Source: an uncultured Planctomycetales bacterium (lineage in GTDB: Bacteria; Omnitrophota; Gorgyraeia; Gygaellales; Profunditerraquicolaceae). From it: a DNA stretch of 64,000 bases. Made by a program: the position numbers and the translations under genes. Below the pieces are notes generated by a model. It was not told where the DNA came from. It did no database searches and was given only the letters and a program-made list of their open reading frames with translations. Position 1 is the stretch's first letter. Every line of letters begins with the position of its first letter. This document shows, one piece after another, positions 471 to 58,020 of this stretch. The DNA lies in assembly GCA_964579435.1 (NCBI GenBank), contig CAZOGI010000011.1, forward strand, positions 18,655 through 82,654. Reading direction: 5' to 3'.

Positions 471-1682
471 ATGGATACACGCATAGTCATTACCGGTGTC
501 GGCCTGGTGAGTTCCCTGGGGACCGGCAGGGAGTGTTTTTTCGAAGCGCTCTTTGCGGGCGCCGACGGGACAGGGCCGGTACAGCTTTTCGATACGGCCT
601 CCTTGCCGGTGAAGCTGGCCGCGCCGGTGAAGGATTTCTCTGCCGAACAGATACTGGGCGCTCAGGGTCTGCGCACGCTTGACCGCAGTACCCGATTGCT
701 CCTTGCCGCCGGGAAGCTGGCGCTGCAGGATGCCGGATTGGCCGAAGGAGCCGTTGTTCCCGAAGCATTGGGGGTGGCGACCGGATCGACCCTGGGCAGC
801 CTCAAGAGCATCTGCGGATTCGATATCGAATCGCTGCGCGAGGGGCCGCGCTACGTCAATCCCGCGCTCTTTCCCAATACGGTTTTGAACTCTTCCTCGA
901 GCCAGCTCTCGATCCGCTGCAATGCCCGGGCGTTCAACGTGACCATGTCGCAGGGCGCCTGCAGCGGCCTGGCGGCGCTGCGTTATGCCGCGCAGGCGCT
1001 TCTGGCCGGGCGGGCGCGGGTGGTGCTTGCCGGCGGGGTCGAAGAGCTGTGCGAAGAGGCTTTTATGGGCATGCTCTCGGCCGGGATCCTCTCCGGAAGC
1101 CGGCCGGGGAGCGAGACGCTTTCCTGTCCCTTTGACCGCAGGCGTAACGGCCTTGTCGCCGGTGAAGGGGCCTGCGTGCTGGTGGTGGAAACACTGCGCG
1201 ATGCCCGGCGGCGCAACGCCGTTATTCTCGGGGAGTGTTGCGGTTGGGGCGAGGGTTTCGGCAGGAGCGACGGATTGCAAAGGTCGATGACCGAGGCGAT
1301 GCGCTCGGCGCACTGCCGGGGTGAGGATCTGGCCTACCTTTCGGCATCGGCTGTTTCCCTTCCTGATCAGGATGCCCGGGAGGCCCGGGCAATCAGACAA
1401 ACCTTCGGGGCCGACGCCGGCGGGCTGCCGGTCAGCGCGCTCGCTTCGCAGATCGGTTCTTGTTACAGCGCTGCGGGATCGTTTCAGGCCGTTTCGGCGC
1501 TCGGGGCGTTGCAAGCGGACCGTATTCCGGCGACGATACACACCGATCTGCCGGATGAAACGCTGGGGATCGACGTGGTTACGCAGCCGCGCGGCGGCTC
1601 GGGAAAAGAGTACGTATTGGTCAATGCCGTTGACGCGACCGCGGCCTCGGCCAGCCTGGTTCTGCGGCGTTATTGCGGGTGA
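471..1682 (+). CDS. Beta-ketoacyl synthase paralog (CLF-like). It retains the Cys region (GACSG) but lacks both catalytic His residues
   Basis: 403 aa with a thiolase/KAS fold (VITGVGLVS, VLAGGVEE, GEGACVLVVE). The positions of the HGTGT and GHxxGAAG motifs read SASAVS and GSCYSAAG. Confidence 0.8.
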   Translation: MDTRIVITGVGLVSSLGTGRECFFEALFAGADGTGPVQLFDTASLPVKLAAPVKDFSAEQILGAQGLRTLDRSTRLLLAAGKLALQDAGLAEGAVVPEALGVATGSTLGSLKSICGFDIESLREGPRYVNPALFPNTVLNSSSSQLSIRCNARAFNVTMSQGACSGLAALRYAAQALLAGRARVVLAGGVEELCEEAFMGMLSAGILSGSRPGSETLSCPFDRRRNGLVAGEGACVLVVETLRDARRRNAVILGECCGWGEGFGRSDGLQRSMTEAMRSAHCRGEDLAYLSASAVSLPDQDAREARAIRQTFGADAGGLPVSALASQIGSCYSAAGSFQAVSALGALQADRIPATIHTDLPDETLGIDVVTQPRGGSGKEYVLVNAVDATAASASLVLRRYCG

Positions 1683-2451: not shown

Positions 2452-2709
2452 ATGGCGGATCTTGCGCACGAGCTTAAACAGGTGATTGCCGAAATCATCG
2501 AGAAAGACCCCGGACTCATCGCGGATGATGCGCGTTTCGCCGAGGATCTGGGGGTTGATTCCATGATGGCCCTTGAGATACTCGCGGCGATCGAGAAGAA
2601 ATACAAAATCCAGATCCCCGAAGACAAACTGATGGAGATGTCCACCTTCAGTAAGACCCTGGCGATCGCCCGGGAGTATCTGGAGAAAAAACAGAATGCC
2701 TCCGCTTGA
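2452..2709 (+). CDS. Dedicated acyl carrier protein
   Basis: 85 aa with the LGVDSMMALE phosphopantetheine-attachment Ser motif. AGGAGAGG ribosome-binding site (RBS) upstream. Confidence 0.85.
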   Translation: MADLAHELKQVIAEIIEKDPGLIADDARFAEDLGVDSMMALEILAAIEKKYKIQIPEDKLMEMSTFSKTLAIAREYLEKKQNASA

Positions 2710-3136
2710 AGCCGCAGACCTGAAGAGAATCCTGCCCCAGCGGTATCCTTTCCTGATGATCGACCGGGTGGTGGAGTGTGAGCCCCTGAAGCGGGTCGTT
2801 GCCCTCAAGAATGTCTCTTACACCGAGGCGTTCTTTGCCGGGCATTTTCCGGGTACGTCCGTTTTTCCCGGGGTGCTGCTGGTGGAGGCAATGGCCCAGG
2901 CTTCGATCGTCCTGGTCGCATCGGCCCGCGCGGATGCGCCTGAGCGCGGGACGTTTTATCTGGGGGCGGTCAAGGCGCGGTTCCTGCGGCCGGTGGTGCC
3001 GGGGGACCAGGTGCGTATAGTGGTAGAGCCGGAGAAGCTGGTGAGCGGCAAGGGAATCGTCAAGGCCCAGGCGTTTGTGGGTGATGCCGAAGTGGCGGGC
3101 GCACAGATCACCTTCGGGTTTACCAAGGAGGCATGA
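2696..3136 (+). CDS. FabZ-like 3-hydroxyacyl-ACP dehydratase
   Basis: RYPFLMIDRV...HFPGTSVFPGVLLVEAMAQA hot-dog motifs. Overlaps the ACP stop by 14 nt. Confidence 0.85.
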   Translation: MPPLEAADLKRILPQRYPFLMIDRVVECEPLKRVVALKNVSYTEAFFAGHFPGTSVFPGVLLVEAMAQASIVLVASARADAPERGTFYLGAVKARFLRPVVPGDQVRIVVEPEKLVSGKGIVKAQAFVGDAEVAGAQITFGFTKEA

Positions 3137-3625
3137 ATGAAGCGCGCAGAAATGAGTACCTCGGGTTTCCCCCGGGCGTTCAGAGGGGCAGGTCTTTTGC
3201 TGTGCGTGATCGCACTTGTTGTTTCGTGCGCGCACGCGCAAACGGCATCGACGAACGAATTACAGGAAGGTCGCTACGTCCTGGTCATGATGAAGGGCCG
3301 CGCGATCTCCAACACGCGGGTGCCGACGATGATCCTGGACAGTTACCAGGGGATCGTCTGGACCTGCCAGAACCTGCAGGACAGCAATCCCCTGTGGGTG
3401 AAGGTTGATCTTGCCCGTAACGCCGGCACCATCGGCCGCAAGCGCTACGTCGCACGCATGCTCGAGTGGCAGGATGCGGATCTGCGCATGCCGGGTATCG
3501 TTTTGGATGTGGAAGAGGGGATCATCTGGACCTGTCCCAACATCATCGACGGCAAGGCGGTCTGGATACGCAAGGATCTTCGTAAAGAAACCGGCGAACA
3601 GGCCGGTGACGGCGGCAATGAGTAG
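3137..3625 (+). CDS. Lipoprotein or secreted protein with internal tandem duplication, unknown function
   Basis: Signal peptide with lipobox-like VVSC. Two repeats (QGIVWTCQNL...PLWVKVDL and EGIIWTCPNI...AVWIRKDL). The start abuts the FabZ-like stop. Confidence 0.6.
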   Translation: MKRAEMSTSGFPRAFRGAGLLLCVIALVVSCAHAQTASTNELQEGRYVLVMMKGRAISNTRVPTMILDSYQGIVWTCQNLQDSNPLWVKVDLARNAGTIGRKRYVARMLEWQDADLRMPGIVLDVEEGIIWTCPNIIDGKAVWIRKDLRKETGEQAGDGGNE

Positions 3626-3791
3626 GATCTCGATTCTTTCGTTGTGCATGGTACTGCTCGCCTGCGGGTGCGCCCCGCGCATGAAGTATCACCGCGACGC
3701 CGAAGGTCTGCTGCAAAATTCCTGCCGCAGCGGTGAGGGTGTCAATACGCAGGATCTGCAGAAAGAGCCCAAGGATCTGACGCAGCGATGA
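3618..3791 (+). CDS. Small lipoprotein (57 aa), unknown function
   Basis: MSRISILSLCMVLLACGC signal with LLAC lipobox. Overlaps the upstream stop. Its stop overlaps the KS start (ATGA at 3788). Confidence 0.45.
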   Translation: MSRISILSLCMVLLACGCAPRMKYHRDAEGLLQNSCRSGEGVNTQDLQKEPKDLTQR

Positions 3792-4993
3792 AGAGGCGCG
3801 TCGTCATTACCGGGTTGGGGGTGGTTTCGGCGATCGGCAGCGGGGCCTTGCCTTTCTGGGAGGCGCTTATCAACGGGACCAGCGGCATCGGGGAGATAAC
3901 CGCTTTCGACACGACGGGTTACCCGACGCACCGGGGAGGGCAGATCAAGGGGTTTGATCCCCGGCAGTACCTGAGCGTACGTTGCGTCTCCCGGATGGGG
4001 AGGGCTTCGCACCTGGCGGTTTCCGCGGCGCAGCAGGCTTTTGTCGACGCCGAACTTGCCCAGCCGCTGCGGCGCACCGCGGGCTTGTGTTTCGGCAGCA
4101 CGATGGGGGAATCCGCGGTCCTGCAGGAGCTGGATGAGGCATGGCTTGCCGCAGGGTTCGCCGGGCTGGACCCGGCGAAGGTGAGGCAGTGTCCCGTCAG
4201 CACGATCGCCGCGCACTGCATGGCCGAATGCCGGCTGCGGGGGCCGGTGCGGGTCATAACCAACGCCTGCGCGGCCGGTAATTTCGCGCTCGGGGCGGCG
4301 TTCGACCTGATCCGCAGCGGCGAGGCCGAGGTGATGCTGGCAGGGGGGGCGGATGCGTTTTCGCGCATCGCCTTTACCGGGTTCAACCGGATGCTGGCGG
4401 TTGCGCCGCAGAAATGTCAGCCTTTTGACAAGAACCGCAAAGGCATGATGGTCGCGGAGGGCGCGGCGTTTTTCGTCCTTGAGTCGCAGGCGCACGCCGC
4501 GGCACGGGGTAAGCGCGCCTACGCCGAGGTCCTGGGATACGGCATCAGCTGCGACGCGCATCATATGAGCGCTCCGCACCACCGCGGCATCGCTGCCGCC
4601 CTGCAGGGAGCGCTCGATGCGGCGGGGATAACCTGCGGCGACGTCGATTATATCAGCGCGCACGGGACCGGCACGCCGGCGAATGACCGCGAGGAGTGCC
4701 TGGCGCTGCGCAGCGTTTTCGCAGATTCCTCCCGTCGCATACCGGTCAGTTCGATCAAATCAATGCTCGGCCACACGATGGGCGCGGCTTCGGCGATCGA
4801 AACGGTCGCCTGTTGCATGGCGATCGCGCACGGCGTGGTGCCCCCGACGGTCAATTTCGAGACGCCGGACCCGGACTGTGACATCGACTGCGTCCCCAAT
4901 GTCGCGCGCCGAATGCGCGTGCGGGTTGCGCTCAATACCGCCTCGGCTTTCGGCGGCAACAACGCCTGCGTCGCCCTGGCGGAGGCCGCCTGA
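3788..4993 (+). CDS. Beta-ketoacyl-ACP synthase (FabF/FabB-like KS) with an intact Cys-His-His triad
   Basis: ITNACAAG (Cys), SAHGTGTP (His) and SMLGHTMGAAS (His). 401 aa. Confidence 0.9.
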   Translation: MKRRVVITGLGVVSAIGSGALPFWEALINGTSGIGEITAFDTTGYPTHRGGQIKGFDPRQYLSVRCVSRMGRASHLAVSAAQQAFVDAELAQPLRRTAGLCFGSTMGESAVLQELDEAWLAAGFAGLDPAKVRQCPVSTIAAHCMAECRLRGPVRVITNACAAGNFALGAAFDLIRSGEAEVMLAGGADAFSRIAFTGFNRMLAVAPQKCQPFDKNRKGMMVAEGAAFFVLESQAHAAARGKRAYAEVLGYGISCDAHHMSAPHHRGIAAALQGALDAAGITCGDVDYISAHGTGTPANDREECLALRSVFADSSRRIPVSSIKSMLGHTMGAASAIETVACCMAIAHGVVPPTVNFETPDPDCDIDCVPNVARRMRVRVALNTASAFGGNNACVALAEAA

Positions 4994-5841
4994 TGCAGGC
5001 TCCTGAGCTGCGCCCCCACGGTTTTTTCCATAAAGGTTCCTCCACCGGGATACTCCTCATCCACGGGATAACCGGTGCCCCGGCCGAAATGCAGTTCCTC
5101 GGCCGCAAGCTCAACGGTGCAGGGTTTTCCGTTCTCTGCAACAGCCTCCCCGGCCATTGCGCGGGCCTGCAGGCGCTGCAGGCGGTCACCTGGCAGGAGA
5201 TCGCCGCTGCCTGCGCAGAGGATCTGCGGCAGCTGCGTTCGTGTTGCGAGACGGTTTTTGTCTGCGGGCTCTCGGCCGGAGCGCTCCTGTCTTTGTATCT
5301 GGCCGCGCAGCAGGCAGAGGCGGTCCGCGGGATCGTTGCGCTTGCCCCCACTTTTTTTTATGACGGCTGGGCGGTGCACAAGGGCAGGGCGGTGCTTGAG
5401 CTGCTTTGGCATATCCCGTTCGTGCGCAAAAGGGTGCTCATTCCCGAAAGCCATCCCTTCGGCCTTAAAGATGAGACGCTGCGCAGCATCATCGAGCGGC
5501 TGTACCGGCTGCAGCGGCACGATACGAAGGCCAAACAGTCAGCCGAGGCGCTTTCTTTCGGCAGCCCGTTCTTTCCCGCTGCCTGCCTCTATCAGCACGC
5601 GCGTTTCGTGAAGGTCGTCAGGCCGCTCCTGCCGACGGTCAAGGCGCCGCTTTTGATCCTGCATGCGCGCGAGGACGACATGGTCAGCCTCAAGAACGCC
5701 GAATATTGCCTGCGCAGCTGCGGCAGCGCGGACAAAAAGCTCATCGTCCTTACGAACAGTTACCATATGATCACTATCGATCAGGAAAAAGAGGCGGTCG
5801 CGCAGGAGGTTGTCGCATTCCTGAGCCGGCTGGCGGCGTGA
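4993..5841 (+). CDS. Alpha/beta-hydrolase fold esterase or thioesterase
   Basis: GLSAG nucleophile elbow, LLIHGITG oxyanion region, C-terminal His. 1-nt TGATG overlap with the KS stop. Confidence 0.75.
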   Translation: MQAPELRPHGFFHKGSSTGILLIHGITGAPAEMQFLGRKLNGAGFSVLCNSLPGHCAGLQALQAVTWQEIAAACAEDLRQLRSCCETVFVCGLSAGALLSLYLAAQQAEAVRGIVALAPTFFYDGWAVHKGRAVLELLWHIPFVRKRVLIPESHPFGLKDETLRSIIERLYRLQRHDTKAKQSAEALSFGSPFFPAACLYQHARFVKVVRPLLPTVKAPLLILHAREDDMVSLKNAEYCLRSCGSADKKLIVLTNSYHMITIDQEKEAVAQEVVAFLSRLAA

Positions 5842-7358
5842 AGAGCGGTTACGACGCGATCGTCGTCGGCGCCGGGATCGGCGGGCTTTTCGCGGCCTTG
5901 GAGCTTTCCACCAAGGGAAAGCGCGTCCTGCTCCTGGAGGCGCAGCCGGTGCCCGGCGGGTTCGCGACGCAGTTCAGGCGCCGCGGGTTCACCTTCGAAT
6001 CGTCGCTGCACTGCGTCGACGGCCTCGGCAAGGACCAGCCGATACGCATGTACCTGCAGATGAACGCGTTCGTGGCCGGGATCTCTTTCCTGCCCCTGAA
6101 GGAATTCGCGCGCATCAGCTATCCCCAGCACGATTTCCTCATCGACGCGGACGTACAGGGCTACAAGAAATACCTCCTCGCCCAGTTTCCGGGAGACAAG
6201 AGCGGGATCGAGCGGCTCTTTTTGTTCTACGAGCGGTTCTACCGCGAGTTCGACGCCTTTGAGGAATCGAGCCTCCCCGAAGCCATGCGCATGCTGCTGT
6301 GCCCGTTTCTCTTCCGCACGATCCTGAAGACCTCGCTGATGAGCGTCGAGCGGCTCCTGAACGGGTTCGTGCGTTCCCCGCAGCTGAAGGCGATCCTCGC
6401 CGACCATTGGCGTTTTCTCGGCTTGCCGCCGAGCGAGCTCTCGGCTTTCTATTTCCTCGTGGCGCTGCGCGGCTATTATTTCGAGAAGACCGCGTATGTC
6501 CGGGGCGGGTATCCGCAACTGGTGCGCGCGATCGTGGAGACGCTGCGCACGCGGGGGGCGGAAATCCTGTTTAAGACGACCGTCAACGCCATCCTGACCG
6601 ACGGCCGCCGGCGGGTGCGGGGTGTGCGCACCGGCGACGGCACGGAGTATCTGGCGCCGGTAGTCGTCTCCAACGTCAATGTCCCCGATACCGTCAGCGT
6701 GCTCCTGGACGACGCCCGCCTGCGCGCGACGCTGGGCAGCAGGGTCAACGGCATGGAAAAGAGCGTCTCCATCTTCCAGGTGTATCTGGGGCTCAACCGG
6801 CCGGCAAAGGATCTGGGGATGAGCTGCCCGCTGCGTTTCATCAACCCTTCCTACGATCACGAGGCGTCTTTTGCCGCAAGCGTGCGCGGCGATTACGCGC
6901 ATGCTCCCCTGGGGCTGGTCGATCACGCCCAGGTCGACGCGACGCTGGTGCCCGAAGGCAAGGGGAGTCTCATCATCATGGTCTACGATTCGTTCCGCAA
7001 CTGGCAGAGCGCCAGCATCGACCGGGCGGAATACGAGCGTAAAAAAGAGGCCGTCTGCGCTCAGTTGATCGCGCGCGCGCAAGCGCACCTGCCGGGCCTG
7101 GCGGCGGCAATCGAGGTCAGGGAGGCGGCAACTCCCCTGACGATGCAGCGCTACACGCATGCCCCGGAAGGCGCCGTGTACGGGTTTGCCCAGACGATCG
7201 CACAATCGTCGGTCAACCGTTTCCCGCAGAAGCTTGCGGTCTCGGGGCTTTTTTTGGCCGGGGCATGGACTTTCCCCGGCGCGGGGATGCACGGCTGTTT
7301 CCATTCGGGGCTGGAGGCGGCATCCCTGGCGTTGCGCTATCTTTCTCGAGCCCGATAG
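5838..7358 (+). CDS. FAD-dependent oxidoreductase of the phytoene desaturase (CrtI/CrtD) family
   Basis: GTG start overlapping the upstream TGA. YDAIVVGAGIGGL Rossmann dinucleotide-binding motif and an amine-oxidase-like C-terminus. Confidence 0.75.
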   Translation: MKSGYDAIVVGAGIGGLFAALELSTKGKRVLLLEAQPVPGGFATQFRRRGFTFESSLHCVDGLGKDQPIRMYLQMNAFVAGISFLPLKEFARISYPQHDFLIDADVQGYKKYLLAQFPGDKSGIERLFLFYERFYREFDAFEESSLPEAMRMLLCPFLFRTILKTSLMSVERLLNGFVRSPQLKAILADHWRFLGLPPSELSAFYFLVALRGYYFEKTAYVRGGYPQLVRAIVETLRTRGAEILFKTTVNAILTDGRRRVRGVRTGDGTEYLAPVVVSNVNVPDTVSVLLDDARLRATLGSRVNGMEKSVSIFQVYLGLNRPAKDLGMSCPLRFINPSYDHEASFAASVRGDYAHAPLGLVDHAQVDATLVPEGKGSLIIMVYDSFRNWQSASIDRAEYERKKEAVCAQLIARAQAHLPGLAAAIEVREAATPLTMQRYTHAPEGAVYGFAQTIAQSSVNRFPQKLAVSGLFLAGAWTFPGAGMHGCFHSGLEAASLALRYLSRAR

Positions 7359-7369
7359 GCAGAATTCCC

Positions 7370-7399
7370 TTGACATAACCCGTTACAATCATTTATAGT
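7370..7399 (+). promoter_or_regulatory. Sigma70-like promoter TTGACA-18-TATAGT upstream of the PagL-like gene
   Basis: TTGACA at 7370-7375 and TATAGT at 7394-7399. A perfect AGGAGG RBS lies upstream of the ATG at 7460. Confidence 0.5.
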
Positions 7400-7459: not shown

Positions 7460-8065
7460 ATGAGGAACGGTCTTGCCTTTTTTCTGGCGTTGCTGTTAGG
7501 GATTAGCGCGTCATCTGCGGTCAGCGCCGCCGAGGATGCCTCCTGCGGCAACGGTTTCCTTAAGAATATCCAGGCGGTCGAATGCCTGGTGGGGTTTAGC
7601 ACGGGAAAGCTGCGGGAGCAGCGTGATTACCGGATGATCCCCTTGATGTTCGCCCTCGATTTCAATTTCAAGGAACTGCTGGAGAATAAGACAAAATTCA
7701 AATATTACGGCCTGCTCCAGTTCCAGATCGAGCCGTATATCTCGACGGTTTACCAGCCCGATCCCAACGTCGAGCTCGGCAACGGCTTTGTCCTGAAACT
7801 GGGCTTGTTGCCGGAGCGTTTCGCGTTCCAGCCGTACGTCAAGGGCGGGGCGGGGATGTCTTTTATGTCGCAGCACACCCGCGAGCAGTCGACGGGCTTC
7901 AATTTCTACGAGTATGTCGCCTTGGGCGGGCACTATTTCCTGAAAAAATCGCTTGCTGTTACGGTCGAGTACCGTTTCCGTCATCTCTCGAACGCCGGCA
8001 TCGACCATCCGAATAAGGGTATCGAGAGCCATTTCGGCATGGTGGGAGTCCTTTATTCTTTCTAG
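7460..8065 (+). CDS. pagL: Outer-membrane lipid A 3-O-deacylase (PagL family)
   Basis: Signal peptide. Beta-barrel ending in aromatic F. RFRHLSNAG matches the PagL His/Ser catalytic motif HxSNx. Confidence 0.7.
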   Translation: MRNGLAFFLALLLGISASSAVSAAEDASCGNGFLKNIQAVECLVGFSTGKLREQRDYRMIPLMFALDFNFKELLENKTKFKYYGLLQFQIEPYISTVYQPDPNVELGNGFVLKLGLLPERFAFQPYVKGGAGMSFMSQHTREQSTGFNFYEYVALGGHYFLKKSLAVTVEYRFRHLSNAGIDHPNKGIESHFGMVGVLYSF

Positions 8066-8069: not shown

Positions 8070-8546
8070 CTGACGCACGGCAGACTGCTTTCGCGGTGGT
8101 TTCTTTTCTTTTCCCCGGGCCTCTTTGCGGCGGCTCTGGTCGGGGCGCGTCCTCTTGCGGTTGAGGCGGCTTCATACGCCGTGGAGGCGCAGGCAATCCC
8201 TTCCGAGGTCGCCTACGGGGATACCTTCCTGTATACCGTCAGCGTTTCTTCTTCCGAAAAAGAGTTTCCTGTCCCTACGTTCCCGCCGCTGGAAGCGTTT
8301 ACCGTGCTCTCGCAGGTGCAGTCGCTTTTTGAGTATCCGGCGCGCCCGTTGCGCTACGTCCAGCTATTTCTGATCAGGCTGCGGCCGAAATATTACGGGC
8401 CGGTGACGATCGAACCGTGCCTTTTGCGCGTCGGGGAAGAAACCTTCCAGAGCCAGCAGCTCATCGTGACCGTCAGGGGGCATGATCCGGCGCAGGAACT
8501 GCAGCGTTCATTTTTCGAACAGGAAGAGGGGCGTTTGCGAAAATGA
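8070..8546 (+). CDS. Secreted protein, weak BatD-like N-terminal domain; start codon uncertain
   Basis: Signal peptide LLSRWFLFFSPGLFAAALVGARPLAVEA. There is no in-frame ATG, GTG or TTG after the PagL-like stop, so a CTG or ATT start is implied. Confidence 0.35.
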   Translation: MTHGRLLSRWFLFFSPGLFAAALVGARPLAVEAASYAVEAQAIPSEVAYGDTFLYTVSVSSSEKEFPVPTFPPLEAFTVLSQVQSLFEYPARPLRYVQLFLIRLRPKYYGPVTIEPCLLRVGEETFQSQQLIVTVRGHDPAQELQRSFFEQEEGRLRK

Positions 8547-10645
8547 ATCCGCCGGCGCGCATCGATGATCAGGTGCGATTTCTTAAGGGTATCGGCCCGC
8601 AGCGCTCGCTCGCGCTGCAGAAGGCCGGGATCGAGACGGTTGAGGACCTCCTGTATTATTTACCGCGCCGCTACGAAGACCGCCGCAGCTTCACCCCGAT
8701 CTCCCGGCTTTGTCCGGATCAGGAGCAGACCGTGCGCGCCAGCGTCCTGGCGGCAGGGCAGCGTCGCTCGCGGCGGCGTGCGAATTTTTCGATCCTGGAG
8801 GTGGCGGTCGGCGACGAGTCTGGCAAGGTCAGCTGCGTGTGGTTCAACCAGCCGTACCTGAAAGCATATTTTAAGGTGGGACGAAGCCTGATCCTGCACG
8901 GCAAGCTCGAGCGCTACGGCAGCCGGCTTCAATTCACGGCGCCCGAATTCGAGTTCGACGATGGGGCTGAGGCCGATTCGCTCAACGTCGGCAGGATCGT
9001 TCCTGTTTATCGCCTCATGGGGGCGATCGGTCAGCGCAGCTTGCGCCGGGTCATGAAGCAGGCGGCCGAACGGTACGCGCATCTGCTTCCGGAGATCCTC
9101 GATCTTTCCCTGCGGCAGCGGCTCGATCTGATCAACCGGACCCAAGCGGTCCTGCAGATCCATTTTCCCGATACCCCCGAGCTGCAGCAACAGGCATACC
9201 GCCGGCTTTCGTTCGAGGAGTTTTTCCTGTTTCAGATCCCCCTGGCGATCCGCAAAATTCGCAAGAAAAAAACCGCGGGGATCAGCCACCGGCCTGCCGG
9301 GGCGCTCTCCCGGGATTTCCTGAAGAAACTTCCCTTTGCATTGACCGCTTCCCAGCAGAAGGTCGTTGCCGAGATCACGCAGGACCTTGCCGCTCCTTAT
9401 CCGATGCAGCGGCTTTTGCAGGGTGATGTCGGCTCAGGAAAGACCGTCTGTTCGACCCTGGCGGCATTGATGGTGCTGGAAGGCGGCTATCAGGTCGCGT
9501 TCATGGTGCCGACGGAGGTCCTGGCGCAGCAGCATTACAGCCGGATACTCGGGCAGCTGGGTGAATTGGGCGCGGAGCACGCGGCGCTCTGCAGGATGGG
9601 ACTTTTGACCAGCGGCCTGGAGCGCGCACCCAAAGAGCGGCTCTTGGGCTCGATCGCCGAAGGAAAAATCCGGCTGGTCATCGGCACCCACGCGCTCCTG
9701 CAGGAATCGGTCAAATTCAGGAACCTGGGGCTCGTTATTATCGACGAGCAGCATAAATTCGGCGTCGGTCAGCGCGCGCTCCTTCCTGCCAAAGGCAATA
9801 ATCCCGATGTCCTGATCATGACCGCCACCCCGATCCCCCGGACGCTGGCGATAACCCTCTACGGTGATCTGGATGTTTCGGTGATCACCGAGATGCCCGC
9901 GGGCCGTCAACCGATCGCCACGCGCAGCTTCAGTTTCGAGCAGGAGCCTTTCGTCTACGCATCGCTCCTTGCCCAGGTGCGCGCGGGGCGGCAGGCCTTC
10001 GTAGTACTGCCGGTCATCGAGGATTCCGAGGCGCTTGCCCTGGCCGGCGCCAAACGGCGCTTCGAGGAATTGAAAGCCGGATCGCTTCGGGGGCTGCGTC
10101 TGGGGCTGCTGCACGGTCAGCTCGCCTCAGCCCAGCAGGCTCAGCTTATCGAGCGCTTCAAGGGCGGCGATATCGACGTTCTCGTGGCCACGACCATACT
10201 GGAGGTCGGCATCGATATTCCCCGTGCCACCTGCATCGTTATCGAGCATGCGGACCGTTTCGGCCTGGCGCAATTGCATCAGCTGCGCGGACGGGTCGGC
10301 AGGGGGGACGCCGCTTCCGAATGTCTCCTCGTGAGCGACGCCCAAACCCCTCAGGCCCAGGCGCGCCTGCAGGCATTGGTCAATTCCTGCGACGGGTTCC
10401 GTATCGCCGAAGAGGATCTGCGTATCAGGGGGCCGGGTGAGTTTTTCGGCAGCCGCCAGCACGGGGTCGTGCCGATGCGCATCGGCGATCCCCTGACCCA
10501 GATGCGCCTGTTGAAAGCGGCGCGCGAAGAAGCGCTGCGCCTGGTGGGGGCTGATCCGCTCCTGTCGGTTGCGGCGCACGCCGGCATCAGGCGTCTTCTC
10601 CTGCGCCGTTTCCCGGAATACGAAAAGACACTTTCCATCGGATGA
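8543..10645 (+). CDS. recG: ATP-dependent DNA helicase RecG
   Basis: Wedge domain, GDVGSGKT Walker A, DEQHKFGV. 700 aa. Confidence 0.95.
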   Translation: MNPPARIDDQVRFLKGIGPQRSLALQKAGIETVEDLLYYLPRRYEDRRSFTPISRLCPDQEQTVRASVLAAGQRRSRRRANFSILEVAVGDESGKVSCVWFNQPYLKAYFKVGRSLILHGKLERYGSRLQFTAPEFEFDDGAEADSLNVGRIVPVYRLMGAIGQRSLRRVMKQAAERYAHLLPEILDLSLRQRLDLINRTQAVLQIHFPDTPELQQQAYRRLSFEEFFLFQIPLAIRKIRKKKTAGISHRPAGALSRDFLKKLPFALTASQQKVVAEITQDLAAPYPMQRLLQGDVGSGKTVCSTLAALMVLEGGYQVAFMVPTEVLAQQHYSRILGQLGELGAEHAALCRMGLLTSGLERAPKERLLGSIAEGKIRLVIGTHALLQESVKFRNLGLVIIDEQHKFGVGQRALLPAKGNNPDVLIMTATPIPRTLAITLYGDLDVSVITEMPAGRQPIATRSFSFEQEPFVYASLLAQVRAGRQAFVVLPVIEDSEALALAGAKRRFEELKAGSLRGLRLGLLHGQLASAQQAQLIERFKGGDIDVLVATTILEVGIDIPRATCIVIEHADRFGLAQLHQLRGRVGRGDAASECLLVSDAQTPQAQARLQALVNSCDGFRIAEEDLRIRGPGEFFGSRQHGVVPMRIGDPLTQMRLLKAAREEALRLVGADPLLSVAAHAGIRRLLLRRFPEYEKTLSIG

Positions 10646-12231
10646 AGCCCTTCCTGTCCCTGAGCGTCCTGTTTTGGCTTCTTGCCGCGGCGGCGAATCC
10701 GTTCTGGGCCGGGTGGGCGTTTTTCACCGACGGGAAAATCGATTCCCCGCGGGGCTTGGCGCTGGTGCTCGCCGTTCAGGCGCTTTTGGGCGGGGCGGGT
10801 TTATTCTGGCTCCGGAGATCGGTTCCCGAAGGAGCGCGCGCGGCGGCCGCGCGGGCAACCTGGATCGTTTTTACCGCTGCCTTTTTCTTCGCTGCCGGCG
10901 GACTGGAGGTGCTCTTGTCCGACCGGTTTTCGTCTGCCGCAGAGATCCGCCCCGCAGGGTGCCTCGTTGCGGTTCTTGCCCTGTGTGTCGCGGTGAGTAC
11001 TGCGCTGTGTTTGCGCCTCGGCAAAAAAAAAGCCTTTTTCACCGGGGCGGCGTCAGTCCTTTTCGGCTGTACGGCTCTCATTCTGGCCGATGTTCTTGTT
11101 TCGTTCTTTGTTCCGCCCTGGCCGGCGCGGGTCCTGCACGGGCTTAAGCCGCGCGATGTCCCGCGGGTCTGGGGGTACCGCACCTTCGAGCAGTATAATA
11201 CCGATTTCAATTCCTGGGGGCAGCGCGACCGGGAACGCAGTGTCGTCCCCGGCTCAGGGGCGTACCGGATCGTCCTGATAGGGGATTCATTTCTCGAGCA
11301 GGGAGCTCGCCGGTCCTTAAGCGTGGCGCTGGAGCGCCAGGTGCACGACAAGGGGATAGAATTCGTCAATCTGGGCGTCTCGGCGACCGGCCCCGACGAT
11401 TACTATTACCGGCTCAAAGAGGTTGCGCTGCGGCTGCAACCGAAGGAATGCTGGGTGTTTTTGTTCTGCGGCAACGATTTTTCGTTAAGCGATCCAACCC
11501 TGCCGAATTCTTTCCTCGGCATCGTCTCGGTTGCGCCGCGCGGTTCTTTCCTGCAGGCGCTGCGGTTGCCACACCTGAATTTCCTTTTGGCTCCCCGGTC
11601 CCGGCGTTTCGATGAGATATTCGGCGCCCGCAGCCTTTTTGCTTCAGAGAAAAGGTTTTTCGATCGCCTCAGGAGCGCTCCTGACGAAGAAATGCCCGAG
11701 CTCTTGTCTGCGGTGCGCCCGGCGCAGGAACGGCCGCATCTTCTTGAGCGGTTGCGCGCGCGCGATCTGTCCCCGTTGTATCAGGCGCTGCGTTCCCCGC
11801 GCCCACAGATGTTGCGTTCCGATCTCCTGAACCGGATATTGGCATCTTGGGGGATGGGGCATGAGCGCGTCAGATCAGAAGACGTAGAGCGCGCCATCGC
11901 CTATCTGGCGGGGATGCGGGAGACGTGTCGCCGGGCCGGGGTCTCTTTGAAGATCGTGCTCATTCCCGATCCGTTGGTAGATAAGCGGGTGCAGCGTCTC
12001 TGGAAGCCGCTTTCAAACGGCGTGGATGTTTTCAGCGGCCAGCGAAACGCATGCCGTCAGGTGAAAAGCTGGTGCCGCGGCAGCGCGGGCTGTTCCGTCG
12101 TGGATCTGGAACCGGTCCTGGCCGGACGCTACGGCATGTACGGCACGTTCGATCCCCACTGGAGCGATCGCGGGATCGATACGGTCGCCCATTTTCTCGC
12201 GTCAGGGGTAGCGCGAAAGGAGCGGCGGTGA
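10642..12231 (+). CDS. Membrane-anchored SGNH/GDSL-family hydrolase
   Basis: Four to five N-terminal TM helices, then the IVLIGDSF, GNDF and DPHWSD SGNH blocks. ATGA overlap with recG. Confidence 0.6.
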   Translation: MKPFLSLSVLFWLLAAAANPFWAGWAFFTDGKIDSPRGLALVLAVQALLGGAGLFWLRRSVPEGARAAAARATWIVFTAAFFFAAGGLEVLLSDRFSSAAEIRPAGCLVAVLALCVAVSTALCLRLGKKKAFFTGAASVLFGCTALILADVLVSFFVPPWPARVLHGLKPRDVPRVWGYRTFEQYNTDFNSWGQRDRERSVVPGSGAYRIVLIGDSFLEQGARRSLSVALERQVHDKGIEFVNLGVSATGPDDYYYRLKEVALRLQPKECWVFLFCGNDFSLSDPTLPNSFLGIVSVAPRGSFLQALRLPHLNFLLAPRSRRFDEIFGARSLFASEKRFFDRLRSAPDEEMPELLSAVRPAQERPHLLERLRARDLSPLYQALRSPRPQMLRSDLLNRILASWGMGHERVRSEDVERAIAYLAGMRETCRRAGVSLKIVLIPDPLVDKRVQRLWKPLSNGVDVFSGQRNACRQVKSWCRGSAGCSVVDLEPVLAGRYGMYGTFDPHWSDRGIDTVAHFLASGVARKERR

Positions 12232-12770
12232 GGATCACGACCGGTATCTTCAAGAACCGGCTGCTTCGCTTTCCTGCCCATATCCGCGCCACCCAGGCCA
12301 AGGTGCGCAAGGCGGTTTTCGATATCCTCGGCGGGGTGGAGGGGCTGCGTCTGCTTGAGCTCTTTGCCGGATCCGGGGCAATCGGCTTTGAGGCGCTTTC
12401 GCGGGGCGCCGCCGAAGTGGTCTTTGTGGAAAACGATCCGGCCTGCGTGAGTATCCTCAACGCCAACAGCGCGGCCTTGGGGGTGCTTTCCTGCAGCGTT
12501 GTCAGGCAGGATGCGCAGGAAGCGCTGCGGCGGTTCTCCCGGGCAGGGGGGCGGTTCGACCTTGTTTTCCTCGATCCACCGTACCGCCAGGACCTGGCAA
12601 AAAAAACCTTGCAAACGCTGAGTGAGTGTGCTATAGTTTCCCGCGATGGTTTGGTAGTCGCACAGCATCACCGGAAAGAAATTCTCCCAGACGCGCTGGG
12701 AGATTTGCATTTATTGAGGAGCTTCAGCTACGGCGATACGGTTTTATCGGTGTATCGCTGTGATCAGTAA
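12228..12770 (+). CDS. rsmD: 16S rRNA (guanine966-N2)-methyltransferase RsmD
   Basis: GTG start overlapping the upstream stop. LELFAGSGAIGFEALSRGA and FLDPPY motifs. Confidence 0.85.
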   Translation: MRITTGIFKNRLLRFPAHIRATQAKVRKAVFDILGGVEGLRLLELFAGSGAIGFEALSRGAAEVVFVENDPACVSILNANSAALGVLSCSVVRQDAQEALRRFSRAGGRFDLVFLDPPYRQDLAKKTLQTLSECAIVSRDGLVVAQHHRKEILPDALGDLHLLRSFSYGDTVLSVYRCDQ

Positions 12771-12808
12771 GATCGTCGGGAGACATCAGACAAAGGCGCC
12801 AGGGGCAA

Positions 12809-12881
12809 GGTAAGGGTTGGTTTTGCTTCTACTGGTGTCAGGTGTCCTGTGTCTTGTGTCTAACCCTGATCCGTTACCCGG
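12809..12881 (-). repeat. GACAC-heptad palindromic intergenic repeat element, copy a (reverse orientation)
   Basis: The core ctggtgtcaggtgtcctgtgtcttgtgtc is the reverse complement of GACACAAGACACAGGACACCTGACACCAG. Flanked by GGTAAC-like arms. Confidence 0.6.
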
Positions 12882-12889
12882 AGGTCCGC

Positions 12890-13375
12890 ATGTGCCAGGC
12901 AGCGATCTATCCAGGGACGTTCGATCCGGTCACGTACGGACATCTCGATCTCATCAGGCGCGCGGTGGGGGTATTCGGGGAGGTGACGGTCGCGGTCGCC
13001 GCCAATCCGCACAAGAAACCGCTCTTTAGCATGCAGGAGCGGGTTAAACTCCTGCAGCGCTCAACCGCGGATTTCCCCGGGGTGACGGTGGAGTCGTTCC
13101 ACGGGTTGGTCGTCGATTACGCGCACCGCAAAAAAGCGAAGGTCCTTATACGCGGCCTGCGGATGCTCTCCGATTTCGAGTATGAATTCCAGATGGCGCT
13201 GACGAACCGTAAATTCAATCCCGAAGTCGAAACCATTTTCCTGATGCCTCAGGATTGTTACAGCTATCTCTCCAGCAAGCTGCTGCGCGAAGCAGTCTCT
13301 TTGGGGGCAGATGTCTCTTTCTTCGTTCCTGATTTCGTTCAGGCCGCGCTCAAAAAGAAAATCGGCAACCGTTAG
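12890..13375 (+). CDS. coaD: Phosphopantetheine adenylyltransferase
   Basis: MCQAAIYPGTFDPVTYGHLD nucleotidyltransferase motif. Confidence 0.9.
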   Translation: MCQAAIYPGTFDPVTYGHLDLIRRAVGVFGEVTVAVAANPHKKPLFSMQERVKLLQRSTADFPGVTVESFHGLVVDYAHRKKAKVLIRGLRMLSDFEYEFQMALTNRKFNPEVETIFLMPQDCYSYLSSKLLREAVSLGADVSFFVPDFVQAALKKKIGNR

Positions 13376-13402
13376 CGGGCAGGCAGGTATGCCTGGTCGC
13401 AG

Positions 13403-13840
13403 TTGAGGATTCCGGTCGCGCAGGTGCCGGCCGAGGGGATCCGGATGGCAGCCGTTCTTGATCCGGCGGATCTGGATGTCGCAATCGGGGGAGGGTCTCT
13501 CTGCGGCCCGGTTACGGTTGCGGCGACGGTGAGCCGCATCACCAATGCCCTGACCGTCGTGATGACGCTGCAGGGGTCCCTTCGGGTGCAGTGCGGCCGT
13601 TGCCTGAGAGAAATCATTCGCGATTTTCAAGGAGAGGCGCGGTTCAGCTATCAGATGGATCCGGGCACCCGGGAGATAGATCTGGTCCCGGAGATCCGCG
13701 AAGAGATCCTGGCGCAGTATCCGCTGAAGCCCTTGTGCGATCCCGCGTGCAAAGGGTTGTGCGGGGGCTGCGGGAAAAACCTCAATACCGGCGCCTGCGC
13801 CTGCACGGCTCAGGCAGGACACAACAGCATGAGATCGTAG
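13403..13840 (+). CDS. yceD: YceD/DUF177 family protein (23S rRNA accumulation); start uncertain (TTG 13403 or ATG 13445)
   Basis: C-terminal CxxC...CxxC cluster typical of DUF177. Conserved position upstream of rpmF. Confidence 0.6.
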   Translation: MRIPVAQVPAEGIRMAAVLDPADLDVAIGGGSLCGPVTVAATVSRITNALTVVMTLQGSLRVQCGRCLREIIRDFQGEARFSYQMDPGTREIDLVPEIREEILAQYPLKPLCDPACKGLCGGCGKNLNTGACACTAQAGHNSMRS

Positions 13841-13857
13841 AAAGGAGCGCGGAACAC

Positions 13858-14058
13858 GTGCCATTACCAAAACGAAGACATTCCAAGGCGCGCGGCAGAA
13901 GGCGCCGTACCCACTGGACACTGACGGGCGTTTCGCTCACCCCCTGTCCGCAGTGCAAGCAGCAGAAGGCGCCGCACCGCGTCTGCCCGGTGTGCGGTTT
14001 TTATGGCGGCCGGCAGGCGATGGAAGTGACGGTCCGCGAGAAAAAACCAAAACGCTGA
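13858..14058 (+). CDS. rpmF: 50S ribosomal protein L32
   Basis: GTG start. VPLPKRRHSKARGRRRRTHW, then CxxC...CxxC. Confidence 0.85.
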   Translation: MPLPKRRHSKARGRRRRTHWTLTGVSLTPCPQCKQQKAPHRVCPVCGFYGGRQAMEVTVREKKPKR

Positions 14059-14083
14059 TAATCCGAGGAGCCAAGAGACGCAT

Positions 14084-15091
14084 ATGAAGATCGTGGTCGA
14101 TGCGATGGGGGGGGATCATGCCCCGGAGGTCGTCATTGAAGGCGCGATCGCCGCGGTGAAGGAGTATGATCTGGAGGTCGTCCTTGTCGGCGATGCCGAA
14201 GGGGTGCACGAGCTCCTGCGCCGGCACCGGTGCACGGACCGGCGCATCAGCGTTCATCCGGCGCTTGAGGTCATCGGGATGGGAGAGCCTGCAGCCGCCA
14301 GCGTGCGCAAGAAGCGGCGTTCTTCGATCGTGGTGGGGGTCAGCCTGGTGAAGGCGGGGGAAGGGCAGGCGTTTGTCTCTGCCGGCAATACCGGGGCGGT
14401 CGTGTGTGCCGCGACCCTGGGGCTGGGCCTTCTGCCGGGCGTCGAGCGGCCGGGGATCGCGGTCGTTGCCCCCTCGTTGGACGGTATCTCCCTGATCATG
14501 GACGTCGGCGCCAACATCGATCCCAAGCCGATGCAGCTGTTGCAGTACGGCATCATGGCCGACGCCTACTGCCGCACTATCCTGGGAAAGCCTTCTCCTT
14601 CGGTAGCACTCCTGAATATCGGTGAGGAGGAGAAGAAAGGCACGGAGTTCCTCAAGGAGACGTATGAGTTACTCGAGAAAAGCGGGCTTAATTTCATCGG
14701 TAACGTCGAAGGCAAGGATCTTTTTTCCGGGAAGAGCGATATCATCCTCTGTGACGGTTTCGTCGGCAACGTCGCCCTGAAGGTCTCCGAGAGCGCGGCC
14801 GAGGCGATGCAGACCTTTTTGAAGCGGCACCTGTTGGGGCATTTCCTGGGCCGCATCGGGATCCTCTTCATGCTTCCCAGCCTCAAACGGTTCAAGAAAG
14901 AGCTCGATTATTCGGAGTACGGCGGCGCGCCCCTTTTGGGCGTCAACGGCGTCGTGATCATCAGCCACGGCCGCTCCAACGCCAAGGCGATCAAGAACGC
15001 CATCCGCGTCGCCAAGGAAGAGGTTGAGCGTAAATTCAACGAGAGTATTATCGAGGCGGTTTCCCGCACGCCGGGAGCGCATGCCTCATGA
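14084..15091 (+). CDS. plsX: Phosphate acyltransferase PlsX
   Basis: MKIVVDAMGGDHAP... sequence with full-length similarity. Confidence 0.95.
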   Translation: MKIVVDAMGGDHAPEVVIEGAIAAVKEYDLEVVLVGDAEGVHELLRRHRCTDRRISVHPALEVIGMGEPAAASVRKKRRSSIVVGVSLVKAGEGQAFVSAGNTGAVVCAATLGLGLLPGVERPGIAVVAPSLDGISLIMDVGANIDPKPMQLLQYGIMADAYCRTILGKPSPSVALLNIGEEEKKGTEFLKETYELLEKSGLNFIGNVEGKDLFSGKSDIILCDGFVGNVALKVSESAAEAMQTFLKRHLLGHFLGRIGILFMLPSLKRFKKELDYSEYGGAPLLGVNGVVIISHGRSNAKAIKNAIRVAKEEVERKFNESIIEAVSRTPGAHAS

Positions 15092-16065
15092 AAAAGGTCG
15101 GTATTGTCGGAGTCGGCGAGTATCTGCCGAAGCGGGTCTTGACCAACGCGGACCTGGAGAAGATGGTCGATACGTCCGATGAATGGATCACGACCCGCAC
15201 CGGCATCAAGCAGCGGCGCCTGGCGGCGGCCGGCGAGGCGGCTTCCGACCTGGCGGTGAAAGCCGCTCAGGACGCGCTGGCCGATGCCGACATCGCTGCC
15301 GGGTCGCTCGATCTGATCATCGTCGCCACGATCACCGGGGATATGCCGTTTCCCTCGAGCGCCTGTCTGGTGCAGCAGGCGCTGGGTGCGGAAAAGGCCG
15401 TTGCCTTCGACGTCGCGGCGGCCTGCGCCGGGTTCGTCTATGCCCTGACCGTCGCTCAGCAGTTCATCGCCACGGGGTGTTTCAAGAACGCACTGGTGAT
15501 CGGCACCGAGGTTCTGTCTTCGATCACCGATTGGCAGGACCGCAATACCTGCGTCTTGTTCGGTGATGGGGCAGGGGCGGCGGTTCTGGCGGCGGTTGAG
15601 TCGGGGGGGATCCGGTCTTCCTACCTGGGCAGCGACGGCAGGCTCAGCGATCTTTTGATGGTCCCTGCCGGGGGCTCGCGCTTGCCCGCCAGTGCCCAGA
15701 CGGTCCAGGAGCGGCAGCATTATATCAAGATGCGCGGCAACGAGCTTTTCAAGGTGGCGGTCAATGCCATGGCAGAAGCTGCGCAGGCTGCCGTGCGCAG
15801 GGCGAAACTGGAGTGCGCGGACATAGATCTGGTTATCCCGCATCAGGCGAATATCCGCATCATCATGGCCGTGGCCAAGAAGCTGGGCCTGGCTCCCGAA
15901 AAGATCTATCTGAATATCGAACGTTACGGCAATATCTCTTCGGCTTCAACCGCCACCGCGTTATGCGAAGCGGTCCGCGAGGGCAGGGTCAAGAAGGGCG
16001 ACAACGTCCTGCTCGTGGCCTTCGGCGCCGGGCTTGTCTGGGGAGCGTGCGTCATCCAATGGTAA
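15088..16065 (+). CDS. fabH: 3-oxoacyl-ACP synthase III
   Basis: ATGA overlap with plsX. AACAGF active-site Cys, and His/Asn motifs. Confidence 0.95.
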   Translation: MKKVGIVGVGEYLPKRVLTNADLEKMVDTSDEWITTRTGIKQRRLAAAGEAASDLAVKAAQDALADADIAAGSLDLIIVATITGDMPFPSSACLVQQALGAEKAVAFDVAAACAGFVYALTVAQQFIATGCFKNALVIGTEVLSSITDWQDRNTCVLFGDGAGAAVLAAVESGGIRSSYLGSDGRLSDLLMVPAGGSRLPASAQTVQERQHYIKMRGNELFKVAVNAMAEAAQAAVRRAKLECADIDLVIPHQANIRIIMAVAKKLGLAPEKIYLNIERYGNISSASTATALCEAVREGRVKKGDNVLLVAFGAGLVWGACVIQW

Positions 16066-17009
16066 CGCGGCGGGGCTACCTTTTTGCGGGCCAGGGCAGC
16101 CAGTATGTCGGCATGGGCAAGGACCTTTTCGGGGCTTTTGCGCAGAGCCGCGCGATTTTCGAGCGTGCCGATGCGGCGCTGGGATTTAGCCTCTCCCGGC
16201 TGTGCTTTGAGGGGCCGCTGGAAGAGCTGGCCAAGACGAGCAATTCCCAGCCGGCGATCGTGACGGTCAGTATCGCCGCGTTCGAGGCGTTACGGGCCTC
16301 CTTCCCCCACGAAACAGCCGCGGCGGTGGCGGGCCTGAGCCTCGGGGAATACGCTGCGTTAACAGCCGCGGGTGTCCTTTCGTTCGAGGAGGCGGTGGTC
16401 CTGGTGCGCAAACGCGGCCTCTTTATGGAGGAGGCTGCGAGCGCGCGGCCGGGCAAGATGCTTTCGGTCATCGGGATGGAGACGGAAACGGTGCGTGCCG
16501 TCTGCGCCGAGGCCGGCTGCGAGGTGGCCAATTATAATTGTCCCGGGCAGGTCGTGGTTTCGGGCAGTCCCGAAGCGGTTTCCCGGGTCAGGGAGCGCGC
16601 TCTGGCGGCAGGGGCGAAGATGGCGGTTGAACTGCAGGTGAGCGGTGCTTTCCACTCTTCCTTCATGCAGAGTGCCTCCGAGCGCCTGGCGCAGGAATTG
16701 GGGCCGCTCTGCTTTAAAGAGCCTCTGGTTCCGGTTGTCTGCAACGTGACCGCATGTCCCGCCGGGTCCGTTGACGAGATCAAGCGCAATCTTATCCGTC
16801 AGGTCTCTTCGAGCGTGCTTTGGGAGGATTCGATGCGTTTTCTCCTGGGGCAGGGGATACGCTCGTATCTTGAATTCGGGCCGGGCAAGGTTTTACGCGG
16901 ACTGATGCGCCGGATCGATCCGGAGGCGGCGGTGCGTACCGTTGAGAACGCCCAGGATATCCGCCGTTTGCAGGAAGAAGGGATGTCTGTCCCAAAGGAG
17001 GGGGTATGA
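16059..17009 (+). CDS. fabD: Malonyl-CoA:ACP transacylase
   Basis: LFAGQGSQYVGMG, GLSLGEY active-site Ser. Confidence 0.95.
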   Translation: MVTRRGYLFAGQGSQYVGMGKDLFGAFAQSRAIFERADAALGFSLSRLCFEGPLEELAKTSNSQPAIVTVSIAAFEALRASFPHETAAAVAGLSLGEYAALTAAGVLSFEEAVVLVRKRGLFMEEAASARPGKMLSVIGMETETVRAVCAEAGCEVANYNCPGQVVVSGSPEAVSRVRERALAAGAKMAVELQVSGAFHSSFMQSASERLAQELGPLCFKEPLVPVVCNVTACPAGSVDEIKRNLIRQVSSSVLWEDSMRFLLGQGIRSYLEFGPGKVLRGLMRRIDPEAAVRTVENAQDIRRLQEEGMSVPKEGV

Positions 17010-17749: not shown

Positions 17750-17792
17750 GGCCGGTCGCCGCAAGCCAAACGTAACATAAAGGAGGAACAGA

Positions 17793-18032
17793 ATGGCGGT
17801 ACAGGATAAGGTGAAGTCGATCATCGCCGAACAGCTGGGCGTGAAGGCCGAAGAGGTTACTCCCGAAGCTTCGTTTATCGATGATTTGGGCGCGGATTCC
17901 CTGGACACCGTTGAGCTGGTCATGGCGTTGGAAGAAGAGTTCGGCATTGAGATCCCCGATGAGGACGCCGAGAAGATCACGACCGTCGGCGATGCCGTCA
18001 AGTATATCGAGGAAAAAACCGCCAATAAATAA
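17793..18032 (+). CDS. acpP: Acyl carrier protein
   Basis: [20 protein letters not shown]. Confidence 0.95.
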
Positions 18033-18096
18033 AGCGTGACGCTTCCCTTTTTTGAATAAAAAGTACCCCGCCGTTGTCCGTGGCGGGGTAACTTTT
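18033..18096 (+). terminator. Intrinsic terminator or attenuator downstream of acpP
   Basis: AGCGTGACGCT hairpin followed by a T6 run, then CCCCGCC-N9-GGCGGGG (18066-18088) followed by TAACTTTT. Confidence 0.5.
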
Positions 18097-18130
18097 AGTG
18101 GCTCGGATGCAGGAGGTTGACCGTACGACT

Positions 18131-37633: not shown

Positions 37634-37645
37634 AGACATCTTTGT

Positions 37646-48634: not shown

Positions 48635-48636
48635 TC

Positions 48637-50680: not shown

Positions 50681-50692
50681 CCGGGATTGTCT

Positions 50693-57991: not shown

Positions 57992-58020
57992 TTGACAGGA
58001 GAGAGGGTTACTTTACAATA
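57992..58020 (+). promoter_or_regulatory. Sigma70-like promoter TTGACA-17-TACAAT
   Basis: TTGACA at 57992-57997 and TACAAT at 58015-58020, upstream of the wHTH/PilX-like genes. Confidence 0.5.

Follow-up and report, generated by a model that had tools for sequence, protein, structure and literature searches.

The locus described here lies at the start of a 64,000-nucleotide (nt) window (the whole stretch of DNA analysed; contig CAZOGI010000011.1 of assembly GCA_964579435.1, positions 18,655 to 82,654). It is a compact gene cassette between positions 471 and 7358, headed by a divergent paralog of beta-ketoacyl-acyl carrier protein (ACP) synthases, or ketosynthases (KS), hereafter KSmut (471-1682, + strand). 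KSmut has the FabF fold and, judging from alignments, none of the catalytic apparatus. It is predicted to be a subunit resembling a chain-length factor (CLF), working together with an active-type KS encoded further down the same cassette (KS2, 3788-4993).

All genes of the cassette are on the + strand and either overlap or are separated by 4 to 16 nt, the exception being a 163-nt gap before KS2. A FabG-type ketoreductase (KR, 1687-2436; adh_short_C2, E 4e-65; TIGR01830, 286 bits) starts 4 nt past the KSmut stop codon. It is followed by an amxACP-like acyl carrier protein (2452-2709; PF00550), whose best matches in the PDB are 7QV0_D, 7AUF, and 9S5I_E, and by a FabZ-type dehydratase (DH, 2696-3136; PF07977) that resembles amxFabZ, with 7QV0_A and the amxFabZ structures 8AYB, 8AYI, 8AYD, and 8AYC as its best matches. 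KS2 retains Cys161, His292, Lys324, His329, and Phe388, and its first PDB match is 9S5H_B (amxFabF2, E 2e-126), followed by Iga11, the KS of ishigamide biosynthesis, with 46% identity. The start of an alpha/beta hydrolase (4993-5841; PF12146, PF12697, PF00561), a candidate thioesterase or acyltransferase, overlaps the KS2 stop codon, and the GTG start of a FAD enzyme of the CrtI/phytoene desaturase family (5838-7358; PF01593; TIGR02734, 173 bits, under the cutoff) overlaps in turn the stop codon of the hydrolase in the sequence GTGA. The cassette holds neither an enoyl reductase (ER) nor a radical S-adenosylmethionine (SAM) gene, and no radical SAM gene is found either in the orthologous cassette of genome L001, as bounded by recG and rsmD.

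Between the DH and KS2 genes lies an additional open reading frame (ORF) of 162 amino acids (3137-3625, + strand) with a hydrophobic N-terminal segment. The protein contains two similar halves of about 50 amino acids, which include GIVWTCQNLQDSNPLWVKVDL and GIIWTCPNIIDGKAVWIRKDL, respectively. It matches no Pfam or NCBIfam family, and tblastn against the 82 related loci finds no counterpart, which suggests an insertion specific to this lineage.

KSmut itself is a real protein of 403 amino acids, with no frameshift or internal stop. Both halves of the ketoacyl synthase domain are recognized by Pfam (PF00109, E 4e-31; PF02801, E 3e-15), and the N-terminus (MDTRIVITGVG), the C-terminus, and the overall length agree with those of its homologs. 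The AlphaFold2 (AF2) model of the monomer is confident (pLDDT 85.4, pTM 0.88), and its only low-confidence stretch, residues 120-137, falls in the helix-loop-helix region discussed below. In a Foldseek search against the PDB, the top matches of this model are FabF structures, with TM scores of 0.87-0.89; the library behind this search predates 9S5H, so that likeness to that structure is outside its reach. The score against the FabF equivalog TIGR03150, 256 bits, is below the cutoff of 493.75. A 436-amino acid ORF on the opposite strand (438-1748, - strand) spans all of KSmut, and is most likely an artefact of the high GC content, because the family and structure matches are all on the + strand.

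The active site was read from alignments of KSmut with KS2, the housekeeping FabF of the window (18098-19375), FabF from Bacillus subtilis, Iga11, and both chains of 9S5H. Where KS2 reads SAHGTG, KSmut reads SASAVS, which places Ser293 (1347-1349) at the site of the first catalytic His. Similarly, the GHTMGAAS around the second catalytic His corresponds to GSCYSAAG in KSmut, with Ser330 (1458-1460) in its place. The replacement of the His-His dyad, already noted in the preliminary description of this DNA, is therefore borne out, and the His residues are not merely shifted. Two further losses had escaped that description: the conserved Lys (K335 of FabF, in the motif SIKSM) is Ala325, at the beginning of the stretch 1443-1460 that ends with Ser330, and the gating Phe (in AFGGN) is Ala389. 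The catalytic Cys, on the other hand, had been described as retained, which turned out to be a register error. From FPNT to AGG, KSmut aligns without gaps with B. subtilis FabF, 9S5H_C, KS2, and the canonical FabF. The nucleophilic elbow, which is C-x-x-G in canonical KSs (ACAAG in KS2, ACATG in FabF), is G-A-C-S-G in KSmut, with the last Gly in register. The catalytic column is thus occupied by Ala163 (957-959), and the cysteine of GACSG is Cys164 (960-962), one residue later. With it falls the contrast that had been drawn with classical CLFs on the grounds of a kept Cys, and the case illustrates that a GxCxG-like string alone is no proof of a catalytic cysteine. All five catalytic and gating positions hold non-catalytic residues. 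Over seven sites (the Cys, the residue after it, the first His and the position two after that, the Lys, the second His, and the gating Phe), KSmut reads ACSVASA and KS2 CAHTKHF. KSmut has lost every catalytic residue and is catalytically dead.

These substitutions can be placed within a large family of dead KSs. In 120 aligned members, KSmut included, the catalytic Cys column holds Phe in 112 sequences, Tyr in 6, Ala in 2, and Cys in none, and the column that follows holds Cys in 51, Ser in 42, Thr in 15, and Ala in 12, a pattern also seen across the 82 genomic loci. The site of Cys164 is, accordingly, a variable one, at which Cys is just one of four residues commonly seen. Over the seven sites, members of the family usually read F-[CTSA]-x-N-K-[ED]-P. 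Of the 120 members, 119 keep the Lys, and 119 have an acidic residue (Glu or Asp) at the second His site, KSmut alone being without both. Its residues at the equivalents of Lys328 and Glu333 (E. coli FabB numbering) are Ala325 and Ser330. Retention of this pair is a habit of the family rather than a published defining criterion. The sister sequence of KSmut (L066) shares the Ala in the column of the catalytic Cys, has Asn after it, keeps the Asn, Lys, and Glu of the signature, and belongs to an intact cassette.

Among structures in the PDB, the best match of KSmut is chain C of 9S5H (E 4e-90, 306 bits), well ahead of the best FabF (E 1.5e-55) and the actinorhodin CLF (E 2.6e-39). Entries 9S5H and 9S5I each contain two 3-oxoacyl-ACP synthase chains, the latter together with an ACP chain, and match the amxFabF2/amxFabFmut pair of Brocadia fulgida described in a recent preprint (bioRxiv 10.64898/2026.05.19.726425). 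The entries are equated with the heterodimer of the preprint on the basis of this match. Taken together, the best PDB matches of KSmut, KS2, the ACP, and the DH indicate that the closest solved relatives of four components of the cassette come from one anammox gene cluster. On this sequence evidence, KSmut belongs to the amxFabFmut lineage.

Divergent FabF paralogs that lack residues of the active site have been known from anammox genomes since 2009 (Rattray et al., PMC2649909), where Kuste3606 was reported to carry Val163/Asn298/Lys328/Glu333, and Kuste2805 Phe163/Asn298/Asn300/Lys328/Glu333; the pattern of Kuste2805 resembles the signature of the Omnitrophota dead KSs. According to the 2026 preprint (bioRxiv 10.64898/2026.05.19.726425), the two FabF paralogs encoded in the anammox "ladderane Cluster I" purify together and each of them is inactive alone, while jointly amxFabF2 and amxFabFmut decarboxylate malonyl-ACP and yield acetoacetyl-ACP. 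The elbow of the B. fulgida amxFabFmut reads G-V-T-S-S, and the preprint names the Val as the substitute for the catalytic Cys. The same source describes how Phe135, Thr138, and Val139 of amxFabFmut line the acyl tunnel of the active subunit, how mutation of Phe135 and Val139 shifts the acyl-length preference, and how the helix-loop-helix region that carries them is disordered without the partner.

In KSmut, the corresponding tunnel motif, NPALFPNTVLN (residues 130-140; 858-890, + strand), is intact, and Phe134, Thr137, and Val138 are the counterparts of these three residues (24-sequence alignment and bioRxiv 10.64898/2026.05.19.726425). Throughout that alignment, which includes KSmut, Phe134, Asn136, Thr137, Val138, and Asn140 are invariant, suggesting strict conservation of the part of the protein that acts on the partner and freedom to change at the former active site. 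In a rough neighbor-joining (NJ) tree, the dead KSs, amxFabFmut (9S5H_C) among them, form a single clade. The partner KSs make up a second one, which includes amxFabF2 and has Iga11 as its sister. KSmut groups with proteins from cassettes of the same type (type A, see below) in a clade of 14 members, and KS2 is in a matching clade of 13 members, which is consistent with joint diversification of the two genes.

Relatives of KSmut were found in 437 genomes (one per GTDB species), mostly from Omnitrophota and in a few cases labelled Nitrospirae or Thermodesulfovibrionia; in the contig scan of this set, the best relative shares 46-47% identity. The seven-gene order of the cassette, KSmut-KR-ACP-DH-KS2-hydrolase-flavoenzyme (type A), is found without the 162-amino acid ORF in eight metagenome-assembled genomes of Ca. 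Omnitrophota (L001, L009, L015, L024, L037, L042, L054, and L066). Identity to the window proteins is 60-66% for the KR, 55-60% for KS2, 52-57% for the hydrolase, which is kept in type-A cassettes, and 44-46% for KSmut. In five orthologous loci the cassette adjoins recG, and in two loci (L015 and L037) it is followed by a PagL-like gene. In the window, the cassette is likewise followed by a PagL-like gene (7460-8065) and recG (8543-10645). Farther downstream, about 5 to 12 kb from the cassette, comes a complete housekeeping block for making fatty acids by the type II route (FAS II; 12051-19375, + strand) with rsmD, coaD, yceD, rpmF, plsX, fabH, fabD, fabG, acpP (17793-18032), and fabF (18098-19375). 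In L001, the only ortholog whose flanks were read, the cassette is followed by rsmD, coaD, yceD, rpmF, plsX, and fabH, an order identical to that of the window as far as L001 reaches.

The host is also indicated by UvrA (50687-53548), whose best named matches come nearly all from Ca. Omnitrophota, with 70-72% identity, and which thereby identifies the window as a divergent Omnitrophota-like chromosome segment rather than part of an anammox genome. An anammox origin is rejected on account of these matches together with the synteny and a GC content of roughly 60%.

Besides type A, two other arrangements are found among the related loci. In a second cassette type (L008, L011, L012, L013, L027, and L065), the genes for the dead KS and the KR are separated by one for a 374-amino acid protein with a Shikimate_DH/OCD-type NAD-binding domain (e.g., L012:11254-12378), and a nitroreductase-family protein (e.g., L012:14586-15176) is encoded between KS2 and the CrtI-like flavoenzyme. 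The flavoenzyme of this type is more distant, sharing 23-30% identity with that of the window. The amxFabF2 of B. fulgida groups in the rough NJ tree with the KS2 proteins of this second type. A third locus type, found in L031-L033, L047-L049, L051, L055, L057, L060, L063, L071, L073, and others, consists of a dead KS with the signature FTNNKEP followed by a KR and a DH. No active KS is encoded within 10 kb on either side of these loci; in L060, the neighbor is an EF-G-like gene.

KSmut is best explained, with a probability of roughly 80%, as a dead protein of the amxFabFmut lineage that forms a CLF-like heterodimer with KS2. The preliminary description had already suggested a CLF-like, non-catalytic partner for this KS, and that part of it is now well supported by the homology to a characterized heterodimer, the synteny, and the matching clades. 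KSmut would do no chemistry itself, and the activity of KS2 would require its presence, as in the anammox relative. The helix-loop-helix that carries Phe134, Thr137, and Val138 would contribute to the wall of the acyl tunnel of KS2 and, in this way, bias the length of the acyl chain, and KSmut would also supply part of the docking surface for the ACP. Together with the KR, the ACP, and the FabZ-type DH of the cassette, KSmut and KS2 would extend ACP-bound chains in a cycle apart from the housekeeping FAS II. Modification or release of the product, predicted to be a specialized lipid, would fall to the alpha/beta hydrolase and the CrtI-like flavoenzyme.

Several observations weigh against this interpretation. 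The identity to the characterized anammox proteins is low (41% for KSmut and 46% for KS2), and not every member of the family has a KS2 next to it to pair with, as shown by the sets of KSmut, KR, and DH without a KS2 within 10 kb. In a crude count of net charge over the helix-loop-helix, a weak proxy, KS2 scores -3 and KSmut 0 (family means -2.6 and -0.75), so that the motif of KSmut is not positive and the electrostatic asymmetry of the anammox pair is only weakly echoed. KSmut is, moreover, an outlier within its own family: among some 200 sequences examined, it is the sole one in which the Lys and the acidic residue are both missing. Of the 83 columns with a conservation of at least 95% among 119 homologs, KSmut departs from 11 (the median member has lost 1 and the most divergent 5). 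In a comparison with its partner, KSmut has lost 15 of 88 conserved columns and KS2 only 6 of 92. Such losses could mean relaxed selection, and they are the main support for regarding KSmut as a decaying gene, a relic paralog without contribution to the pathway. This explanation is nonetheless unlikely. Not only is the gene full length, free of frameshifts and internal stops, and matched to its homologs at both termini, but 83% to 87% of the family-conserved columns are still present, the tunnel motif is whole, and the AF2 model is confident. KSmut also opens a closely spaced operon whose other genes are intact, and its nearest relative, with Ala at the same Cys column, is part of an intact cassette. 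We take the extra losses instead as a sign that, in a lineage with a long branch, a pocket without catalytic function has drifted faster.

The other alternatives would give KSmut a chemistry of its own. A priming role has been proposed for actinorhodin-type CLFs that carry Gln at the Cys site, and in a similar fashion the site of KSmut could decarboxylate malonyl-ACP to start the chain; the preliminary description had also offered a "priming" partner. The formation of acetoacetyl-ACP from malonyl-ACP by the anammox heterodimer, as reported in the preprint (bioRxiv 10.64898/2026.05.19.726425), would agree with such a role. In KSmut, however, the Cys site holds Ala163 and not Gln, Ser replaces both of the His residues on which decarboxylation depends, and Ala the Lys, so that KS-Q-like priming is very improbable and this part of the earlier proposal does not stand. 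A further alternative is a new activity dependent on Cys164, such as an acyl-transfer or coupling step. This cysteine does sit one residue from the former nucleophile, and a similar role was raised for Kuste3606 and Kuste2805 (Rattray et al. 2009, PMC2649909), but the position varies among Cys, Ser, Thr, and Ala in the family and is Asn in the L066 sister, no general base is left nearby, and the isolated dead subunit of anammox bacteria is reported to be inactive (bioRxiv 10.64898/2026.05.19.726425). An activity of this kind is extremely improbable.

Other features of the window are further removed from KSmut. Upstream of it lies a truncated class-III aminotransferase (48-428, + strand) that is 70% identical to L019:8598-8966. 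In L019, an Omnitrophota genome, this homolog is located some 1 kb upstream of the dead KS, so synteny extends to the left flank in at least one relative. Between the cassette and the PagL-like gene, which encodes a putative lipid A 3-O-deacylase, there is a sigma-70-like promoter (7370-7399, + strand) with TTGACA and TATAGT separated by 18 nt, matching the consensus at 11 of 12 positions. The window encodes three FabF-type KS-fold proteins. Two regions, 58001-60000 and 46001-50000, stand out in composition: the GC content dips to 0.52 around the pilM-like and secretin genes, compared with about 0.61 elsewhere, and the AT skew is strongly negative (-0.26 to -0.37) over a block of membrane proteins including DUF2079, UbiA, and glycosyltransferase genes. 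Four + strand ORFs have no Pfam match at E 1e-5: 10642-12231 (529 amino acids), 24648-25511 (287), 37021-37668 (215), and 57121-57744 (207).

The class of dead KS partners to which KSmut belongs is already known, having been recognized in 2009 and structurally resolved in 2026, and KSmut itself changes little in this respect. From a broader point of view, the locus indicates that pairs of the amxFabF2/amxFabFmut type, with their amxACP-like and amxFabZ-like partners, also occur outside ladderane producers. This favors the idea of a KS/CLF core that produces a more ordinary acyl intermediate, with the ladderane-specific chemistry taking place elsewhere. It also calls for caution with the antiSMASH "ladderane" clusters already reported in Omnitrophota and other non-anammox phyla (bioRxiv 10.1101/2022.12.20.521206), as such calls in these genomes are not to be taken as ladderane synthesis. 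More interesting than KSmut itself is the question of what the Omnitrophota cassette makes. One tentative and rather doubtful answer would be an undescribed membrane-lipid pathway of Omnitrophota, perhaps an evolutionary relative or even the source of the core of ladderane Cluster I, the radical SAM enzyme being an addition made by anammox bacteria. If this were true, the loss of Lys and Glu in the KSmut lineage would show that both are dispensable for scaffolding by a dead subunit.

Compared with known systems, KSmut shares with the canonical FabF proteins (window 18098-19375; E. coli and B. subtilis) the fold, with TM scores of 0.87-0.89, a similar length, and 28-33% identity. These enzymes, however, work as homodimers with an intact Cys-His-His-Lys-Phe set, whereas KSmut lacks the triad. 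The CLF of the actinorhodin type (KS-beta; 1TQY chain B) is comparable in that it, too, is a KS paralog without activity whose pairing with an active KS shapes the acyl or polyketide tunnel. Yet it carries Gln at the Cys site, where KSmut has Ala163, and belongs to an aromatic polyketide cluster instead of a reducing, FAS-like setting with a KR and a DH. The weaker score of KSmut against this protein than against FabF (E 2.6e-39 versus 1.5e-55) suggests a separate origin, and membership of the actinorhodin-type CLFs is ruled out by this closer score to FabF and by the missing Gln.

The highly reducing type II pairs Iga11-Iga12 (ishigamide) and ApeO-ApeC (aryl polyene) resemble the cassette in combining a KS/CLF with a KR and a DH and no dedicated ER. 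They differ from it in that the window is without aryl-priming, methyltransferase, or Lol-like export genes, and neither Iga12 nor ApeC is among the top 60 PDB matches of KSmut. ApeC is only half the size, so KSmut is not ApeC-like, and, with the Ape-specific genes also absent, an aryl-polyene (Ape) cluster is rejected.

The closest system is the anammox ladderane Cluster I (KustE3603-3608) with its amxFabFmut (KustE3606/Broful02170; 9S5H_C). Unlike the window cassette, this cluster has a gene for a B12-dependent radical SAM enzyme and is found in an anammox planctomycete that makes ladderanes, not in an Omnitrophota-like host. It lacks the KR and the alpha/beta hydrolase that the cassette adds, and has its two KS genes adjacent, while those of KSmut and KS2 have four genes between them. 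At the protein level, identity is 41%, the Cys site is Ala in KSmut and Val/Thr in the anammox protein, and the equivalents of Lys328 and Glu333 kept by the anammox proteins and nearly all Omnitrophota members are gone from KSmut. Both proteins, in turn, have a full-length FabF fold with the Cys and both His residues replaced, and they share the same Phe/Thr/Val tunnel residues within a common VNPxxFPNTVLN motif. Both are also encoded upstream of an amxFabF2-type KS, in the company of genes for an amxACP-type carrier protein, an amxFabZ-type DH, and a CrtI-like flavoenzyme.

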